Below, one piece after another: positions 2,347 to 22,472 of a stretch of DNA of 24,071 nt. How positions within the stretch are numbered: the stretch's first letter is position 1; the number at the start of each line of letters is the position of its first letter. The stretch lies in the IMG/VR virus record IMGVR_UViG_2737471839_000014; one strand, 5' to 3'. The notes below the pieces were generated by a model that was given only the letters and a program-made list of their open reading frames with translations, did no database searches and was not told the origin of the DNA. This DNA is from a virus (lineage: Duplodnaviria; Heunggongvirae; Uroviricota; Caudoviricetes). A program made the position numbers and the translations under genes.

Positions 2347-5300
2347 TACCGATATGCTCCACTTAACCGACCACCATCACGGGCCTGCTGTTGCATAAAG
2401 TCCGCTGCCGCTTTTTTCCCAAGGTCATAAACCACCTTCAGGGCAGCCGGACCTATCTGCCCGTTCGTGCCATCGTTATTGATCTCGATGTTGTACTGCG
2501 GGGCAAACATCGCCATACCTGAACCACCAATATCCGCCACAACCCCCAGCTTACCGTCAGCACCACGACGCAGAGGCAGAATGGCTTCAGGTCCCGCTTC
2601 ACCCATCACACCCGCGCCTTTTGCAAAAGCAAAAAACGTCGGACGGTTAACCACCGTGCCACTGTAACGACTCAAATCAGCAGACTGATAAATCCCCCCA
2701 TTGGCATTCAGGGAAAGGCTGCTGAGATCAAATCCCAGTACACTGCCAATCCCTTTTATCGATTTCATCATGGTTGCCTGCGCCAGGATTTTCGCCATAT
2801 CTGACAGCACAGAAGAGGTGAAGGATTTGAAATTGAGTTTGCCGGTAGTGACAAAAGTTGCCAGGCCATTTCCCATGTTGCTGAAGGCTGACGAGAACAC
2901 CTGTTCTGCTGTTCCTGCCGTATTATCTGCATCCACGGTAAAATCCTGAAATGCACGCAGGACTCCGTTTTTCCAGTTACCCTGCACAACTTCAAGCTGT
3001 TGCCAGTAACGGCGATTCTCATTCAGTTGTCGGTTCAGGCTCTCCGTCAGCGCCTGCTCGGCCTTTCTGTAGTCATCCGTGTTATATGTCCCTTTCTGCT
3101 CACTATCCCGCCTCAACTGCTCCAGCTGTTGCTGGTATTTCTGGCGAAGACTCAGTTGTACCTGATATCGCTGCCGCTGCTGATCACCCATACCCACCGT
3201 GGCGATATCCAGGTCATGTTGCTGACGCTGAGCGCGCTCTTCTTCAGCCAGTTGACTGGTCAGCTGAATTGTTTTTTTCTTCAGATCGTTGAGTGCCGTC
3301 TGTTTCTGAAGCTCCTGCTGTTTTACATCCAGCAGCGTCAGTGCCTGAATCAGTTCATCTTTACGGGCCAGCACACTCTTTTCATCTGCCGTCAGTTTTT
3401 TCCCGTCCAGATCGCTGATGCGCTGCTGCAGAGCCAGAAGCTGTTTATGCGCTTCTGTCATCTTTTCAGTGACAATGCCTGCTGACTGTCTTGCAGCAGC
3501 AATCTGTCCTTCCACCTGTGCCTGTTGCTGACTGTACTGCAGCAATAACCGGGTGGCCTCATCATTACGGGTTTCGCGTGTTTTTTTCTTACCGGATGCC
3601 AGGGCTTTCTCGTAACGTTCATTTTCACGTTGTATCGCTGCATCCCTGACAGCCTGATCGGCGTACTGCATGGAATTAATACGCGCAATTTCACGCTGAT
3701 GTCGTGCTGCTTCCGTTTCATTCATCCGGTTCAGTGCAGCATTTTCAGCATTACGTCGTTTCTGTTGCTCCTGATAATTCCGCTCTGCCTGCTCTTTTGC
3801 ATCCTGCAAATCCTTCTGGCGTTTTTTCTCCTGAAGATCGTTAAGACGCTGCTGATCGTATTCAACCTGAGAAGATGATGCCGTCCAGGGGAGTCTTTTC
3901 GCCCGCGACACTTTCTCCTGTAAAGCGGCAATCTGTTCATCCAGCGAGTCTTCACGACCAATATTCATGGCCGCATCCCAGAAACGACTCCACAAATCAG
4001 ACAGATACTTCAGCGTACTGCCAAGCGCATTGAGGTTATTATCAATATCCGCAGTACGCCGACCGGTTTCCTCTGCCAGTGCAGACATGGCTATCCGTGC
4101 AGCATCACTGGACCGTCCCTGATCCCCAAGGACACGTATCTGCTCAAGCTGAGTGGCAGTAAGAAAATGCAGCTCATTGTCCAGAGCCTTCGCGGCATTT
4201 ACAGGATCATCCTTCAGCCGCTTAAACTGATTTATGGTATCGCTGACCGACTGGCCAACCGATCGCTCCATCTGTGCGGCAGCTCTCGCCACCATACCGA
4301 TATCGTTTCCACGAAATGCACCACTCCCCACCACCTGAGCCAGCGCACCGGCTGCAGCATGTTGCGTGATACCATTCCCGGAAATAGCACGACTGAGCGT
4401 CCACAGCTGCCCGGCAGTGACTCCGGCATAATGCCCCGTCAGCGACAACTGGCGGTTAAATTCTTCCCCCTCCTTCTGACCGTCATACCAGGCTTTACCC
4501 AGACCATAGACGGACGCGGCAATACCGCCAATAACCCCGCCAAGCATCATGCCTTTCGGTGACATCAGAGTGTCTATCCATCCGGCACGGTTAGCCAGCG
4601 TTATCCCGGATCCCCTCAGCGCCCCTAAATTGCCGCGGGCCAGTTCACCTATCAGAACGCCAATCTCCTGGCGGGCCGCTGCACTTTTCAGACCCAGCGA
4701 ATGCGTGGCTTTTCCTGCCTGCTCCATTTTGCGGATATACACTTCTGCAGCACTGCTTACCCCCAGCTGGGCAGCCTTAGCACGAAGCAACTCAGAAGAA
4801 GAAAGATTCTGGCGGGTTGCCTGCTCTTTAAGCTGACGGATAAACGCCACTTTCTGTCGGGTAGCCTCTTCCTCAGCCTGCGTAAGAACACGGGTTTTCG
4901 CCGTAACCTCAGAAATCAGCGCCAGATAATCCTGCTGACCAATCCCGCCACTGTTTCTGGCCTGTCGGATCTGCTGCTGAATACGCTGTAATTCCTGCAG
5001 CCCCGCACTGGCCTGTTTCACACTGTCAATCTGACGATAAAACGCGGCAGCCGCTTTATCCTGAGCCTCCGCCAGAGCCATGGCCTGCGCCTGTTCCTCG
5101 CGCATTTTCTGGCTCAGTGCCTCCATACGCTGGCGGGTTTGCTCCACCTCGCGGGCCATGCGTTCATGAGCCTGTGCGCTCTTCTCCACCGTCTGCGCAT
5201 GGACGGATGCGGCTGTTGCAGCCGAAGAAGCCGCCTGCATTGTCTGCCGGGCGGCCTGAGTCTGACGCTCCATAAAACGCTGCATACGGGCAGAAGACCG

Positions 5301-16569: not shown

Positions 16570-16775
16570 TTCATTTTCACTTTCTTAAATCTAACGACAG
16601 ATGGCTAACATTTAAGTATTGTGAAATATTATCAAATGTAATCATCATTGATTTACAAAAGATACATTTTGCCCCGAAAGGATTTCTGTCAGAAACATCA
16701 AAAGATGATGTTCTATACTGAGAACCATGGCAACACGGGCATCTAAAGTGAATATGGTTTGTAATATTTTCTACC

Positions 16776-16988
16776 TCAAAGTGCCACTACATGAACAGCT
16801 GCAGGGCCTTTAGGTCCGTTCTCAATACCAAATTCGACTTCCTGATTCTCAGTTAACGTTTTGAAATCGTTGCTCTGAATAGCTGAGAAATGCACAAACA
16901 CATCTTTGCTACCATCTTTCGGCGTGATGAAACCAAAACCTTTTTCAGGGTTAAACCATTTCACTAAACCAGTCATTTTGTTAGACAT
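16776..16988 (-). CDS. cspI: cold-shock protein, CspA family (CspI-like)
   Basis: 70 aa [38 protein letters not shown]... with canonical cold-shock domain motifs (RNP1-like KGFGFI, VFVHF); ATGATG start at 16991/16988; long AT-rich 5' leader typical of csp genes. Confidence 0.85.
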
Positions 16989-17351
16989 CATTATTACCTT
17001 TTGAAGAAGTTAGCCCTTGGGCAGAATGGTCCGAAAAAAAATATCAGAGAGAAAAACCAACAAGGAAATCTCAAGAGGTACAAATAATAAAATTATAACA
17101 ATGACTGCTTCAGATAATTTTGTAACAAACCAGAACACCATTAACGCATGATTAACCAACCATAGCAAGGATTACTTTTGTAAAGAAAAACACACGAATG
17201 AAACAATAGCTTTATTTATTAATAAAACGTGTCATTCTGTCTAATGACCTTTTATCTTACCCTTAAGATTTCAAGGATTTTGACTCATGGAAGAGTCCTT
17301 TTTATTTAAATTTCACATTCAGCGCTAAAAATAATCCGATTTAATATTAAT

Positions 17352-18374
<1,023 letters not shown>

Positions 18375-18378
<4 letters not shown>

Positions 18379-18686
18379 AGATATTTATGATGAGGACGCT
18401 CGTGCTTATTGGCAGGATTTTCAATCTTAAAGGAGTACTGATGCTGCAGATAAGACTCAACTTTTTCTGACAATTTTTCTGCTACTTCCAGGAAGACTTG
18501 CCGGACGCTCATTCTGGCTGCTGCCTCATAAAACTCCAGCGCAGCTCCTTCAACACGGTCCATGGCGACATCCAGGCCAAAAATTTCACCGTCAAAGCGT
18601 TCTTTGTCCCGTAACGCTAAAGTTACCGTAACTTTATTCTCAAAATTGCGGATCCCTTTCACAATCAGTTCATATTTTTGAGTCAT
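18375..18686 (-). CDS. YdfR-like protein (unknown function) between holin and endolysin
   Basis: 103 aa soluble ORF, ATG at 18686 with GGGAGAG SD; same size and position as ydfR of E. coli K-12 Qin (between essQ and rrrQ); identity by synteny and length only. Confidence 0.6.
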
Positions 18687-18690
18687 TGAA

Positions 18691-18906
18691 TTACTCTCCC
18701 CGTGCAGCCTTACGCTTGTCTTCTTTAATCTTGAAATAAAGGTTTGTCAGGTACGTCAGCAGGCCAAATACCAGGCTACCCAGCACACCTATTGCTGCCC
18801 ACTGTGAGGGCGTGACTTTATCGAGCAGCTGTAAAAACCAGTAGCCAGCACTGCCTGCGGAGGTGCCGTAGGCAATGCCTGTTGAAATTTTGTCCATGGA
18901 TTTCAT
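18691..18906 (-). CDS. class II holin (phage 21 S21-like pinholin) with dual-start motif
   Basis: [71 protein letters not shown] closely matches recalled S21; Met-Lys-Ser-Met dual start (ATG at 18906 and 18897); GGAGGTGA SD; track ORF extended upstream in frame. Confidence 0.85.
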
Positions 18907-19007: not shown

Positions 19008-19032
19008 TATAAAAAGCTCGCCGTAGCGAGCT
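19008..19032 (-). terminator. intrinsic terminator downstream of lipoprotein pair
   Basis: minus strand AGCTCGCTACGGCGAGCT (7-bp stem) followed by TTTTTAT; between lipoprotein 2 stop and holin start. Confidence 0.5.
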
Positions 19033-19157: not shown

Positions 19158-19553
19158 CTAACCTCGCATGTCAAAGCCAGATTTCTGAAAATCTCTGTAG
19201 ACTTCCGGATTGTTGAAGGCCGGAAATTTGGCTTTATGAGCTGCGGACTTTATCGCTTCGCAATAGGCTTTATCACCGTTACTGGTAGATATTTTTAACG
19301 CCGTGCCATCCTGAGAGAATTCCATATGCAACCTGCATTTTTTCCCTTTCCAGTTATGCGGCTCATCAAGTTTGGCATTAATTGCAGCTCTGATTCCCCG
19401 CGCTTGCGCCCCCCATTCATCCTGATCATCCCAGCGTCCTGAACTGCAACTACCTGTAGCAGTAGTTTTGTGGCAATCTGAAGGGTGTAAAGGTGTGCAT
19501 CCCGCAACAAAACCGACCCAAAAAGTCAACATAACGATTTTCTTTAATCCCAC
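19158..19553 (-). CDS. lipoprotein with diverged TolA C-terminal domain III-like fold (paralog 2)
   Basis: 131 aa; GTG start at 19553 with GAGGAG SD (alternative ATG at 19532); signal peptide with lipobox VAGC; C-terminal half ...KGKKCRLHMEFSQDGTALKISTSNGDKAYCEAIKSAAHKAKFPAFNNPEVYRDFQKSGFD shares spacing of Cys pair and Gly/Asp positions with paralog 1 and TolA domain III. Confidence 0.75.
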   Translation of the reverse strand: MGLKKIVMLTFWVGFVAGCTPLHPSDCHKTTATGSCSSGRWDDQDEWGAQARGIRAAINAKLDEPHNWKGKKCRLHMEFSQDGTALKISTSNGDKAYCEAIKSAAHKAKFPAFNNPEVYRDFQKSGFDMRG

Positions 19554-19703: not shown

Positions 19704-20132
19704 TCAGGGTTTAAAATCCAGCACCCCATTTTGAAATACTTTATATACTTCCGGCGAAGGGGGGGCAGGTATATCAGCATTCTTTATCGCATTCATCGCT
19801 TCACGACATAAATCGAGGTATCCACTTTCTCTTTTAACCTCCAGTAGAAGGCCATTCGGGGCCATATGCATTCTCAGTGTACACTCTTTTCCTGAATACT
19901 TACTCGCATCCCCGAACTGTTTTTCGATGGCGCTCTTGATTTGATGGGCATACAGACGGATATCCTCACTAACATCAGAAGTACGTTCAGATGAACTCAC
20001 ATACTGTGTCTCTATTGCTTTATCGGAGTAATATGATGTACGGTCATGATAATTTGTCGATACAGCATCAGTGCACCCGATAATAATCCCACTAATAATC
20101 AACGTAAGAATTGATGCGCTACGAAAACCCAT
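19704..20132 (-). CDS. lipoprotein with TolA C-terminal domain III-like domain (paralog 1)
   Basis: 142 aa; ATG at 20132 with GAGGA SD; signal peptide MGFRSASILTLIISGIIIGC (lipobox IIGC, Thr at +2); C-terminus YAHQIKSAIEKQFGDASKYSGKECTLRMHMAPNGLLLEVKRESGYLDLCREAMNAIKNADIPAPPSPEVYKVFQNGVLDFKP aligns with recalled E. coli TolA C-terminus YAGQIKSAIESKFYDASSYAGKTCTLRIKLAPDGMLLDIKPEGGDPALCQAALAAAKLAKIPKPPSQAVYEVFKNAPLDFKP. Confidence 0.8.
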   Translation of the reverse strand: MGFRSASILTLIISGIIIGCTDAVSTNYHDRTSYYSDKAIETQYVSSSERTSDVSEDIRLYAHQIKSAIEKQFGDASKYSGKECTLRMHMAPNGLLLEVKRESGYLDLCREAMNAIKNADIPAPPSPEVYKVFQNGVLDFKP

Positions 20133-20831
20133 TTTTCCTCACATATGTCATATAGTAAAGGATTATATATACCGTTGTTTTGGACGCTCAAACAGCGAAT
20201 CAGATCAAATAAAACGCACATTTGTTAACATTTACACAAAGTCTGCGTGGGATATTCTGAAAGAATATCCATAATGTGGAGAGAATCTATTGAAGTGCAT
20301 GGTGCCGGGTGCCTCCCGGTGAATTCAGTACCAGCACCTGAATCCACGATTATCCCATATACCTACTCGCTGATTGCCCCTCCGCATAGGGGGATTCACC
20401 ATGCCAGTTTCTTTTAACAAACTCCCCGCAAACCAGACAACAGTCAACCGCCTGAATTGTGAAGTATTTAAAAATTTCTCCCGCTAACTGATACCCGGCT
20501 AACAGTCTGGCGTTTTCTTTTTCAGCAACGGGAAAGCAACAACCACCACACCCGCCACCAGCACACCGTCAGCCAGCACTGACATTATCCGGCTGCTGCA
20601 ATGCCATTCACAAAAACAGTAAGCAATCACTTTTTACCGTAACAGGTGATAATCCAGATATGTATCTACCCCAGATGAGTAATCCGAAGTTCATCCATAC
20701 CACAGGTCCTGGCTATTCTGTTGTACTCCTGAACAAGAGCAAATAATTCTGAATTAGCAACCATGAACTCATCGCAAACCCTCTGTATAGCATCACTATT
20801 CAGAATAATAACGTCTCTTCCCGAAAGACGA

Positions 20832-21245
20832 TCAGGAGTACAGAACAAAACTGTCAAACGGCTGAAGGCCTTTGCTCGTGCTGCATTGACTATACAACAC
20901 CATTGCGCCGGTACCATAACGGTGAATGACGGTTTCGCTGTGATGATAATCGCCGTGTGGCCACTGGCAGGATTTAATATGGCGCAACAGCCAGTCAGAC
21001 AATGCACCAGCACCACCAGCAGCACGAATCACCCGTGCGTTACTGAAAAACGGCAGCAATGTTTTGTCTTCCACCAGCGGCTGGCGAGCGGCAGGGACGA
21101 CCCCGGACGGCAGATTACGCATGCTTTTCGGTTCCGGCTCCACCAGTAACCGGGTATTGTGGAATACCGGCATGGATTCACGGCCCGGCTTAACGATCAC
21201 CAGCCCGAGTTCCGGTACCAGAACAGGTCGAAGTAATACCCGCAC
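20832..21245 (-). CDS. hypothetical protein in the late-regulator (Q) position
   Basis: 137 aa; GTG start directly after upstream ORF stop with GGAGG 4 nt upstream; no recognised motif; overlapped by an alternative-frame ORF (20666..21025). Confidence 0.35.
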   Translation of the reverse strand: MRVLLRPVLVPELGLVIVKPGRESMPVFHNTRLLVEPEPKSMRNLPSGVVPAARQPLVEDKTLLPFFSNARVIRAAGGAGALSDWLLRHIKSCQWPHGDYHHSETVIHRYGTGAMVLYSQCSTSKGLQPFDSFVLYS

Positions 21246-22059: not shown

Positions 22060-22215
22060 TTACTCCTCAGGTTCGTAAGCTGTGAAGACAGCGACCTCCG
22101 TCTGGCCGGTTCGGATTCGTACCTCGCAGAGGTCTTTCCTCGTTACCAGTGCCGTCACTATGACGGTTAAACAGATGACGATCAGGGCGATTAACATCGC
22201 CTTTTGCTGCTTCAT
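22060..22215 (-). CDS. hokD: Hok/Gef family type I toxin (HokD/RelF-like)
   Basis: 51 aa MKQQKAMLIALIVICLTVIVTALVTRKDLCEVRIRTGQTEVAVFTAYEPEE, matches recalled HokD; ATG at 22215 with AAGGAG SD; track ORF 22060..22272 is an in-frame upstream extension. Confidence 0.9.
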   Translation of the reverse strand: MKQQKAMLIALIVICLTVIVTALVTRKDLCEVRIRTGQTEVAVFTAYEPEE

Positions 22216-22472
22216 AGCCTGCTTCTCCTTGCCTTTCGGCACGTAAGAGGCTAACCTACATGTGTCTAGCATGAAATTGGCCTCAGATTAATGTTAAGCG
22301 TCTTGCAGGACGCGTAATGTTAACTGGGGCTTTTCTCTACCTGCCGTTGGTGTTCGTGCCCGAGGCAGATAGCCTCAAGCACCCGCAGTCATTCTACTTA
22401 ACTAAGATTTCCCCGCAAACCGTTTTGTCCAGCACAGTAAATATCCAACTAAACCAATGGAGTTCGCTGTAT

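Follow-up and report, generated by a model that had tools for sequence, protein, structure and literature searches.

ydfR, a DUF1327 gene between holin and endolysin in a Qin-like prophage, as a candidate late accessory gene

Why a small protein should be encoded between the holin and the endolysin of a lambdoid phage, and whether this position says anything about its function, are the questions raised by a 24,071-nucleotide stretch of caudovirus DNA (IMG/VR record IMGVR_UViG_2737471839_000014), hereafter the window. The first-pass annotation, made from the sequence alone, described a phage-21-type lysis cassette with an extra 103-aa ORF coupled to both of its neighbours, and took the conserved placement of this ORF as a sign of a lysis-related role. 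In this study, we followed the ORF through sequence databases, related phage loci, and the literature. The observation was partly confirmed and its interpretation is partly supported; the function of the gene is still undefined in the literature, as had been stated.

The lysis cassette of the window

The ORF turned out to be catalogued already. It is the gene named ydfR, and the order essQ-ydfR-rrrQ-rzpQ is the canonical layout of the Qin prophage of K-12, which has been annotated before. The encoded protein matches Pfam PF07041 (DUF1327) with 168.2 bits (E 4.6e-50; cut-off 25), residues 1-93 aligning to positions 1-93 of the 93-position profile, and it also belongs to PHROGs 34145, 2735, 2091, 406, and 1085, all of function unknown. 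It is 93% identical to YdfR of the K-12 Qin prophage, with all seven differences within residues 1-60. A megablast search with the cassette gave matches in 5,162 of 5,426 complete E. coli genomes; in RefSeq, the four genes are named essD/essQ, ydfR, rrrQ, and rzpQ. ydfR is a known unknown, a K-12 gene that has stayed uncharacterised for decades, and the cassette around it is a textbook one (Table 1).

Table 1. Features of the lysis region of the window (positions are those of the whole 24,071-nt stretch).
Feature	Positions	Strand	Basis
Embedded Rz1-like o-spanin ORF, rzoQ-like	17402..17698	-	ORF list; PHROG 11621 Rz-like spanin, E 3.4e-8
Rz-like i-spanin, rzpQ, DUF2514	17352..17849	-	Pfam PF10721, 131.6 bits; PHROG 312 Rz-like spanin
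rrrQ-like SAR endolysin, pseudogene	17846..18378	-	CP024243 alignment; Pfam PF00959 on body
ATGA overlap of ydfR stop and ancestral rrrQ start	18375..18378	-	Sequence; intact relatives
ydfR, DUF1327 family, 103 aa	18375..18686	-	Pfam PF07041; K-12 identity
ydfR codons 78-103, derived, poorly conserved tail	18378..18455	-	Alignments; AF2
ydfR codons 1-77, conserved acidic beta-beta-beta-alpha domain	18456..18686	-	Alignments; AF2
S21-type class II holin (essQ/essD-like), 71 aa	18691..18906	-	Pfam; PHROG holin families; hydropathy
Shine-Dalgarno-like GGGGAGAG within final holin codons	18694..18701	-	Sequence
Terminator-like hairpin and T-run, about 110 nt upstream of holin start, putative function	19015..19032	-	Consensus scan only

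The holin upstream of ydfR is, as first proposed, of the S21 pinholin type with a Met-Lys-Ser-Met start. It matches Pfam PF04971 (Bacteriophage P21 holin S) with 122.2 bits (E 8.7e-36; cut-off 26), and its N-terminus, M1-K-S-M4, is encoded by ATG AAA TCC ATG at 18906..18895, with ATG codons at 18906 and 18897 that are preceded by the Shine-Dalgarno sequence GGAGGTGA. The same MKSM is found in 90 of 120 holin ORFs from related loci and M-x-x-M in 116 of them. The hydropathy of the two transmembrane domains, weak for TMD1 (0.46) and strong for TMD2 (1.58), is the pattern expected of this pinholin type, and the protein agrees with S21 pinholins in profile, in its length of about 71 aa, in the weakly hydrophobic, Gly/Ala-rich TMD1, and in the Met1-Lys-x-Met4 motif. 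S21 pinholins form small heptameric pinholes by which the membrane is depolarised and the endolysin is not released. In phage 21, the dual start of S21 yields both the holin and its own antiholin. Only 4 nt separate the TAA of the holin from the ATG of ydfR, and the Shine-Dalgarno signal that had been placed after the holin stop, GGGGAGAG (18701..18694), actually lies within the last holin codons. The 3' end of the holin gene is identical in all related loci, and the signal serves whichever gene comes next after the holin, i.e., ydfR in the window and R in phage 933W.

The endolysin gene requires a correction. The first-pass annotation had described a SAR lysozyme; a SAR segment is indeed encoded, and it is intact in relatives, but the gene of the window is frameshifted, which had been missed. 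In relatives, intact rrrQ starts with ATG AAC ACA AAA ATC AGA TAC, and in the window the G of the sixth codon, AGA, is missing between positions 18363 and 18362, a 1-bp deletion outside any homopolymer run. The ATG frame ends after 15 aa, and the SAR segment and the lysozyme body lie in a frame without an ATG. The proposed ATGA coupling to the endolysin stands insofar as the overlap is there, with rrrQ annotated from its ATG in intact relatives, but in the window this ATG opens the 15-aa frame only. A 71-nt probe spanning the site, run against the 5,426 complete E. coli genomes, matched 7,207 places in 3,246 of them, and every one of these places has the extra base; the deletion is likewise absent from all 137 fetched loci. 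Being private to the window sequence, the frameshift is neither a shared allele nor a programmed event, and the rrrQ of the window would be either a pseudogene by mutation or a product of sequencing error. The intact RrrQ of the CP024243 relative is 177 aa long. From its residue 9 onwards, it can be aligned with the structure of the SAR endolysin of phage 21 (3hde, E 1.2e-16) and also with RrrD (4zpu); it keeps the E-x8-D-x5-T motif and has a weakly hydrophobic, SAR-like N-terminus. The window encodes the SAR segment and E-x8-D-x5-T as well, though not within an intact SAR endolysin ORF.

On the other side of rrrQ, the GTG start of rzpQ overlaps the rrrQ stop (GTGA), and the embedded rzoQ-like ORF carries the lipobox L-T-S-C and probably has an internal ATG as its true start. 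The description of the whole as a phage-21-type cassette of a Qin-like prophage, with an S21 pinholin family member, a SAR-type lysozyme, and Rz/Rz1, is right for the lineage. In fact, the window is 99.3% identical across 20.9 kb to a full-length Qin-like lambdoid prophage of E. coli GPT24-02, with only two indels in the aligned stretch, namely the 1-bp loss in rrrQ and a difference in a T7/T8 run by which ynfN is frameshifted. A further 2.5 kb is absent at positions 20883-20894, marked by a 12-bp overlap of the alignment pieces; in GPT24-02 this block holds two tRNAs, the Q antiterminator, RusA, and two thirds of ydfU, and neither Q nor RusA was found in the window by tblastn. The full set of head and tail genes is retained. 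With a frameshifted endolysin and no Q antiterminator, the lysis cassette is non-functional; judged from its sequence, it is defective and would be incapable of lysis. For functional work on ydfR, the copy in the window, with its frameshifted endolysin and without a Q gene, is therefore the wrong template.

The YdfR protein and its published interactions

YdfR has no transmembrane segment and no signal peptide, which agrees with the earlier call of a soluble protein encoded by a real ORF (18686..18375). In family alignments, conservation is confined to residues 1-77, the core motifs in YdfR being Y-E-L-x-V (5-9), V-x-V-T-V (19-23), and (F/Y)-Y-E-x-E-A (52-57), with Y53 and E54 (numbering of the first sequence) invariant across the family-wide alignment. 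The AF2 model has strands at residues 5-14, 18-27, and 34-43 and a helix at 50-84; its pLDDT is 74-91 in the core and below 50 for residues 83-103. The conserved part is acidic, with a pI of 5.0 for residues 1-77 of YdfR and of 4.5-5.0 in every branch of the family. No informative structural homologue or sequence relative of known function was found for YdfR. It has no match among the PADLOC defence-system models and NCBIfam, nor among the lysis-annotated families of Pfam and PHROGs. A consensus scan found no promoter-like or terminator-like site flanking ydfR on its own strand.

ydfR was still uncharacterised in a 2024 census, and DUF1327 is mentioned in passing in one paper. One recent study (PMC13232886; 2026) reports a partner for the protein. 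A two-hybrid screen baited with RNase G recovered YdfR residues 1-72 three times, as three identical clones, and K-12 YdfR gave a two-hybrid signal with both Rng and Rne1-597, the catalytic N-terminal half of RNase E. Rne1-598 co-purified with Strep-YdfR, and residues 1-72 were sufficient for the interaction with RNase E. The YdfR eluate contained DNase-resistant nucleic acid, contaminants not being excluded by the authors as the source of this RNA. Native ydfR reads were near zero in K-12, and overproduction of YdfR caused no growth defect and few transcriptome changes (PMC13232886). In addition, an overexpression screen found a threefold higher streptomycin MIC with ydfR, and the ydfR deletion is among the hits of an envelope-integrity screen of the Keio collection, where it appears in the supplementary tables only and without follow-up. 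Our literature search found no link of ydfR or DUF1327 to lysis; the terms essQ and rrrQ gave almost only unrelated acronyms.

We read ydfR as an accessory, moron-like late gene in the S/R junction that neither belongs to the holin-endolysin machinery nor regulates it. With a probability of roughly one half, its product is an accessory protein that is expressed late, is coupled to the holin, and binds a host factor through its conserved acidic domain, RNase E being the sole candidate. ydfR starts from the Shine-Dalgarno sequence within the final codons of the holin, which is the initiation site of the endolysin in phages without ydfR. On this reading, YdfR would be made late together with the holin. 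It would act in the cytoplasm by binding its host factor, the reported partner being the catalytic half of RNase E (and RNase G), and its likeliest action may be to modulate host RNA decay or processing in late development. That the gene lies within the lysis operon should not be taken as a guide to its function, and DUF1327 may be better regarded as a portable accessory domain of late genes.

Genomic context and alternative readings

The distribution of the family bears directly on this reading. Word-indexed searches of 5.8 billion proteins gave only 231-282 matches, the named ones all from Escherichia or Shigella, and in a pattern scan with a single genome for each species the gene turned up in E. 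coli, E. ruysiae, E. albertii, and S. flexneri and in two evidently mis-binned MAGs. When 1.84 billion representatives were searched exhaustively with a profile, only 90 proteins were obtained, among them homologues of 72-76 aa at 24-40% identity. Five of these short homologues have a named source (Yersinia mollaretii, Y. bercovieri, Pantoea piersonii, Sodalis ligni, and Serratia), and those with fetched contigs are flagged PF07041 in the source tables. The pattern-based locus scans relied on the subset alignment A5, since A4 and A6, which span the whole family, proved too divergent. The short DUF1327 genes were found between gpM and gpL (L097, L100, and L104; upstream of gpL in Sodalis L098), between gpI and gpJ (L095, L103, L105, L111, and L137), after Rz/Rz1 of a phage-21-like cassette (L108), and within the S/R interval, about 590 nt from the holin and behind another gene (L109). 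The domain thus appears to move between slots of the late operons of Enterobacterales prophages.

In most non-Qin loci, the stop of DUF1327 is faced by a convergent opposite-strand ORF of 70-116 aa, which lies within a few nucleotides of it or overlaps it. These convergent ORFs match phage families of unknown function (PHROGs 10490, 2572, 2411, 1853, 25324, and 6806), with no match in Pfam. That they form a single family was rejected: BLASTP and hhalign comparisons among eight partner groups showed no relationship, and the only hint of kinship is a weak match of two groups to PHROG 7249. The pair of a short DUF1327 gene and a partner of PHROG 10490 recurs, at 26-55% identity, in four slots, namely I/J, upstream of J, after Rz/Rz1, and S/R. 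It is possible, if unlikely, that DUF1327 normally works together with its convergent gene, for instance as a late antagonist or regulator of a protein expressed in the lysogen, and that the Qin type, including the ydfR of the window, is a remnant after loss of the partner. The persistence of the pair and the membership of the partners in real PHROG families speak for such a two-gene module, as does purifying selection that looks weaker in the close, mostly Qin-type copies. Since the partner families are not detectably related, however, the module would need unrelated partners, or else the convergent genes merely share an insertion hot spot; moreover, BP-4795, mEp460, and Sodalis L098 are partnerless and yet keep the DUF1327 gene intact. 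A more specific and equally speculative version holds that DUF1327 is the late-strand half of a convergent pair that moves as a unit (into S/R, after Rz/Rz1, M/L, and I/J) and that its product, made in late lytic growth only, silences or compensates a lysogen-expressed partner, maybe via RNase E acting on the sense and antisense RNAs that convergent transcription yields. The ydfR of the window, which has no convergent partner, would then be an orphan.

Among Escherichia phages, the linkage of the gene is much tighter. DUF1327 was found by tblastn in 100 deposited phage genomes, all of lambdoid coliphages and Stx phages. For the comparison of loci, we used five annotated examples together with a scripted survey that covered 138 loci. 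DUF1327 lies directly 3' of an S21-type holin in all 117 Escherichia-type loci in which both neighbours were identified, in nearly all of them with a gap of 3-4 nt. The claim of conserved placement therefore holds on the holin side; it fails on the endolysin side, where the distance from DUF1327 to the endolysin start ranges from -4 to +881 nt and the gene stops 36-881 nt ahead of R in many phages. Protein lengths vary as well (72, 103-104, 114, 169, 263-268, and up to 385 aa), and of the 81 close viral loci, 78 retain the full 103-codon ORF. The ATGA overlap is derived and belongs to the Qin type. A leader, CCTGATAAATATCCATGAAC, is kept upstream of R in all DUF1327-bearing phages, and the 3' end of Qin-type ydfR, CCTCATCATAAATATCTATGA, corresponds to this R leader minus its stop codons. 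Because of this homology, the last approximately 26 residues of YdfR and the ATGA overlap are a derived read-through.

Despite this linkage, the holin is commonly found without its neighbour. S21-type holins occur in 438 phage records, of which about 338, or approximately three quarters, are without DUF1327. In 933W, R starts 4 nt past the S stop, where DUF1327 starts elsewhere, and in cdtI, an R21-like lysin overlaps the stop of a holin that is 96% identical to that of the window. On these data, the DUF1327 gene is an insertion at the holin-coupled initiation site, which it has taken over.

These data also bear on the possibility that YdfR is a regulator of lysis timing, i.e., a cytoplasmic modulator of the pinholin or of SAR-endolysin release, similar in role to T4 RIII or other antiholin cofactors and kept by translational coupling at a fixed ratio to the holin. 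The invariant adjacency to the S21 holin with its mostly 3-4-nt gap and shared Shine-Dalgarno signal, the additional ATGA coupling to R in the Qin type, and the retention of intact versions in the plaque-forming phages mEp460, HannyBb, and Tritos all speak for this possibility, and so does the envelope-integrity hit of the K-12 deletion. However, three quarters of the S21-holin records, including that of the 96%-identical holin, dispense with DUF1327, S21 already has its own antiholin via the dual start, the motif for which is present in the window, and YdfR matches no lysis-annotated Pfam or PHROG family. As for the envelope phenotype, polarity of the resistance cassette on the SAR endolysin gene that follows could account for it instead. 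What weighs most against a dedicated lysis function is the position of the distant homologues, which occupy non-lysis slots, lying outside Escherichia in tail clusters or after the spanins. We consider a role in lysis timing quite improbable, and the step from placement to lysis that the first-pass annotation had taken is not supported; the one published interaction of the protein concerns RNase E rather than a lysis protein.

Selection on the gene differs with the depth of the comparison. The conserved DUF1327 domain has a dN/dS of about 0.3 across alleles at dS 0.2-1.5, whereas the close, mostly Qin-type copies of ydfR have a dN/dS of 0.6-0.8, an estimate that is noisy at a pS of 0.02; at the same loci, the holin has 0.09 and rrrQ 0.04. 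Frameshifted DUF1327 variants are common in the databases, e.g., P0037 (96 members), P0015, and P0092. On the dN/dS ratios, the Qin-type copy may be decaying and doing nothing. It is nevertheless very unlikely that ydfR is functionless filler, a decaying Qin-type ORF kept only to deliver ribosomes by ATGA termination-reinitiation to an endolysin start whose leader, CCTGATAAATATCCATG, has no obvious Shine-Dalgarno sequence: the high Qin-type dN/dS (0.8 versus 0.04-0.09 for its neighbours), the frameshifted variants, and the scarcity of K-12 reads with little effect of overexpression (PMC13232886) fit this idea, but the low-divergence ratio is the noisy one, the N-terminal domain is conserved across genera with a confidently predicted fold, nearly all close viral loci keep the full ORF, and the distance to R in many phages means that coupling to R is not the general reason for the gene.

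The reading of ydfR as a late accessory gene has its own difficulties. The invariant linkage to the holin in Escherichia would also fit a holin-related role, the link to RNase E comes from one study with overproduced tagged proteins (PMC13232886), and ydfR departs from the classical definition of a moron, as neither a promoter nor a terminator belonging to it was detected. If either the RNase E link or the idea of paired genes is true, it would point to a new late function in host takeover or self-regulation in lambdoid phages, including Shiga-toxin phages.

Comparison with known systems

The closest counterpart of the locus is the essQ-ydfR-rrrQ-rzpQ/rzoQ cassette of the K-12 Qin prophage, which has the same gene order, the same 4-nt spacing between holin and ydfR, and the same ATGA overlap. 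In contrast to K-12 Qin, the window has the private 1-bp deletion in rrrQ and lacks the block of Q, RusA, and tRNA genes, yet it has full sets of head and tail genes. The cassette also resembles that of phage 21 (by way of cdtI and the structures 3hde and 3hdf) in the PF04971 holin, the M-K-S-M start, the weak TMD1, and, in intact relatives, an R21-like endolysin. The difference is DUF1327, which is absent between the holin and the lysin of cdtI and 933W; phage 21 itself has S and R adjacent.

Antiholins and cofactors of lysis inhibition, such as lambda S107, S21-71, T4 RI and RIII, and P1 LydB, are comparable to YdfR in being small, holin-adjacent, and encoded in the lysis cassette, and T4 RIII is also soluble and cytoplasmic. 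However, no similarity in sequence or fold to these proteins was found, and DUF1327 is not confined to lysis cassettes. Neither homology nor a family-wide association with holins places YdfR among antiholins or dedicated lysis regulators.

The lambdoid morons (lambda bor and lom, or the HK97 gp15 type) are similar in their patchy occurrence between late genes, their lower GC content, and their varied slots. At the same junction, ydfR is present in BP-4795, mEp460, and Qin and absent in 933W and cdtI, and its GC content of 0.429 differs from that of the flanking holin (0.495) and rrrQ (0.503). Unlike these morons, ydfR lies on the late-operon strand, starts 4 nt from the upstream stop, and is barely expressed in the K-12 lysogen, and neither promoter nor terminator was detected for it. 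The strand, the missing promoter and terminator, and the low expression in K-12 argue that ydfR is a late-expressed accessory gene rather than a moron of lysogenic conversion.

Phage-encoded modulators of RNase E are known, among them T7 gp0.7, phiKZ Dip, and T4 Srd. YdfR has no homology to these proteins, and its reported binding is to the catalytic N-terminal half of RNase E, not to the C-terminal scaffold. Nevertheless, YdfR is like them in being small and in its reported binding to RNase E (PMC13232886), and it is acidic, as is Dip.

Small genes around DUF1327

The short forms of the DUF1327 gene, the family to which ydfR belongs, have a conserved partner. This protein of about 93 aa (PHROG 10490, a phage protein family) is encoded on the opposite strand at six of the fetched DUF1327-bearing loci, carries the motif AA(S/T)NF...LD..GD..FS..LK...AIN.LMQP, and converges on the short DUF1327 gene every time. 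The pair occupies four different late-operon slots, with 26-55% identity. Small opposite-strand ORFs also occur in E. coli phages in the interval from DUF1327 to the endolysin gene, where they belong to at least four unrelated families (PHROGs 2572, 2411, 1853, and 25324). Because some of them overlap the 3' end of DUF1327, the long C-terminal extensions of that protein may be adventitious.

At locus L109, a 186-aa protein encoded directly after the holin (3410-3970) is the same module as residues ~100-287 of the database protein P0211, and in other Stx-type phages this module is fused C-terminally to the DUF1327 domain; this is a gene fission or fusion in the interval between holin and endolysin. 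The E. coli-type holin-ydfR-lysozyme cassette was also found, with 81-92% identity to the window, in MAGs labelled Veillonella parvula (L008) and Bacillota (L010), which probably reflects binning contamination of these public assemblies.

Coordinates of the features in the window and in the fetched loci (L-numbers)
Feature	Locus	Position	Strand
PHROG 10490 protein	L109	4230-4517	opposite to DUF1327
PHROG 10490 protein	L111	3882-4163	opposite to DUF1327
PHROG 10490 protein	L137	4241-4528	opposite to DUF1327
PHROG 10490 protein	L108	4245-4529	opposite to DUF1327
PHROG 10490 protein	L095	1879-2160	opposite to DUF1327
PHROG 10490 protein	L114	4230-4514	opposite to DUF1327
Small ORF, DUF1327-endolysin stretch	L005	2958-3218	opposite
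Small ORF, DUF1327-endolysin stretch	L092	3467-3748	opposite
Small ORF, DUF1327-endolysin stretch	L012	3311-3589	opposite
Small ORF, DUF1327-endolysin stretch	L003	3317-3631	opposite
Small ORF, DUF1327-endolysin stretch	L006	2744-3040	opposite
Endolysin leader CCTGATAAATATCCATGAAC	window	18378-18400	
Endolysin leader CCTGATAAATATCCATGAAC	L002-L006	~20 nt before the endolysin start in each locus	
rrrQ codon 6, 1-bp deletion private to window	window	18362-18363	minus
ynfN codon 8, T7 run (T8 in relative)	window	~16482	minus
Junction, 12-bp overlap between two alignment pieces	window	20883-20894	
cspA-type thermoregulator leader (Rfam)	window	16730-17146	minus
STnc100 sRNA (Rfam)	window	20243-20433	minus
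sok antitoxin RNA (Rfam)	window	22210-22384	minus
TolA C-terminal domain ORF, lipoprotein-like, 131 aa	window	19158-19553	minus
TolA C-terminal domain ORF, lipoprotein-like, 142 aa	window	19704-20132	minus

Indels, a missing block and RNA elements

The deletion in rrrQ, which shifts the reading frame of the SAR endolysin, lies outside any homopolymer run and was found at none of 7,207 matching places in a search of 5,426 complete E. coli genomes. The run-length difference in ynfN, which frameshifts the gene after 14 codons, may stem either from slippage or from an error in sequencing. As marked by the alignment overlap, about 2.5 kb is missing at the junction, across which identity to the closest relative (a prophage of E. 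coli GPT24-02) falls from 99.3% to 93.5%. In that relative, the block contains tRNA-Arg, tRNA-Ile, the Q antiterminator, RusA, and most of ydfU; ARAGORN found no tRNA in the window.

All three Rfam matches exceed the gathering score. The sok RNA adjoins a Hok/Gef ORF (22060-22272), and the cspA-type leader would belong to the cspI region, judging from synteny with locus L138.

Comparison with Stx phages and 933W

The two TolA-domain ORFs are paralogues with the Q region on one side and the holin on the other, the position of stx in Stx phages. The longer one is intact in the window, while annotations of relatives list it as a pseudogene. A possible role for both is that of periplasmic TolA-domain-III decoys directed against colicins or filamentous phage. 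All phages that carry DUF1327 conserve the endolysin leader, in which no Shine-Dalgarno sequence is obvious, whereas the endolysin of 933W uses one within the 3' end of the holin gene.
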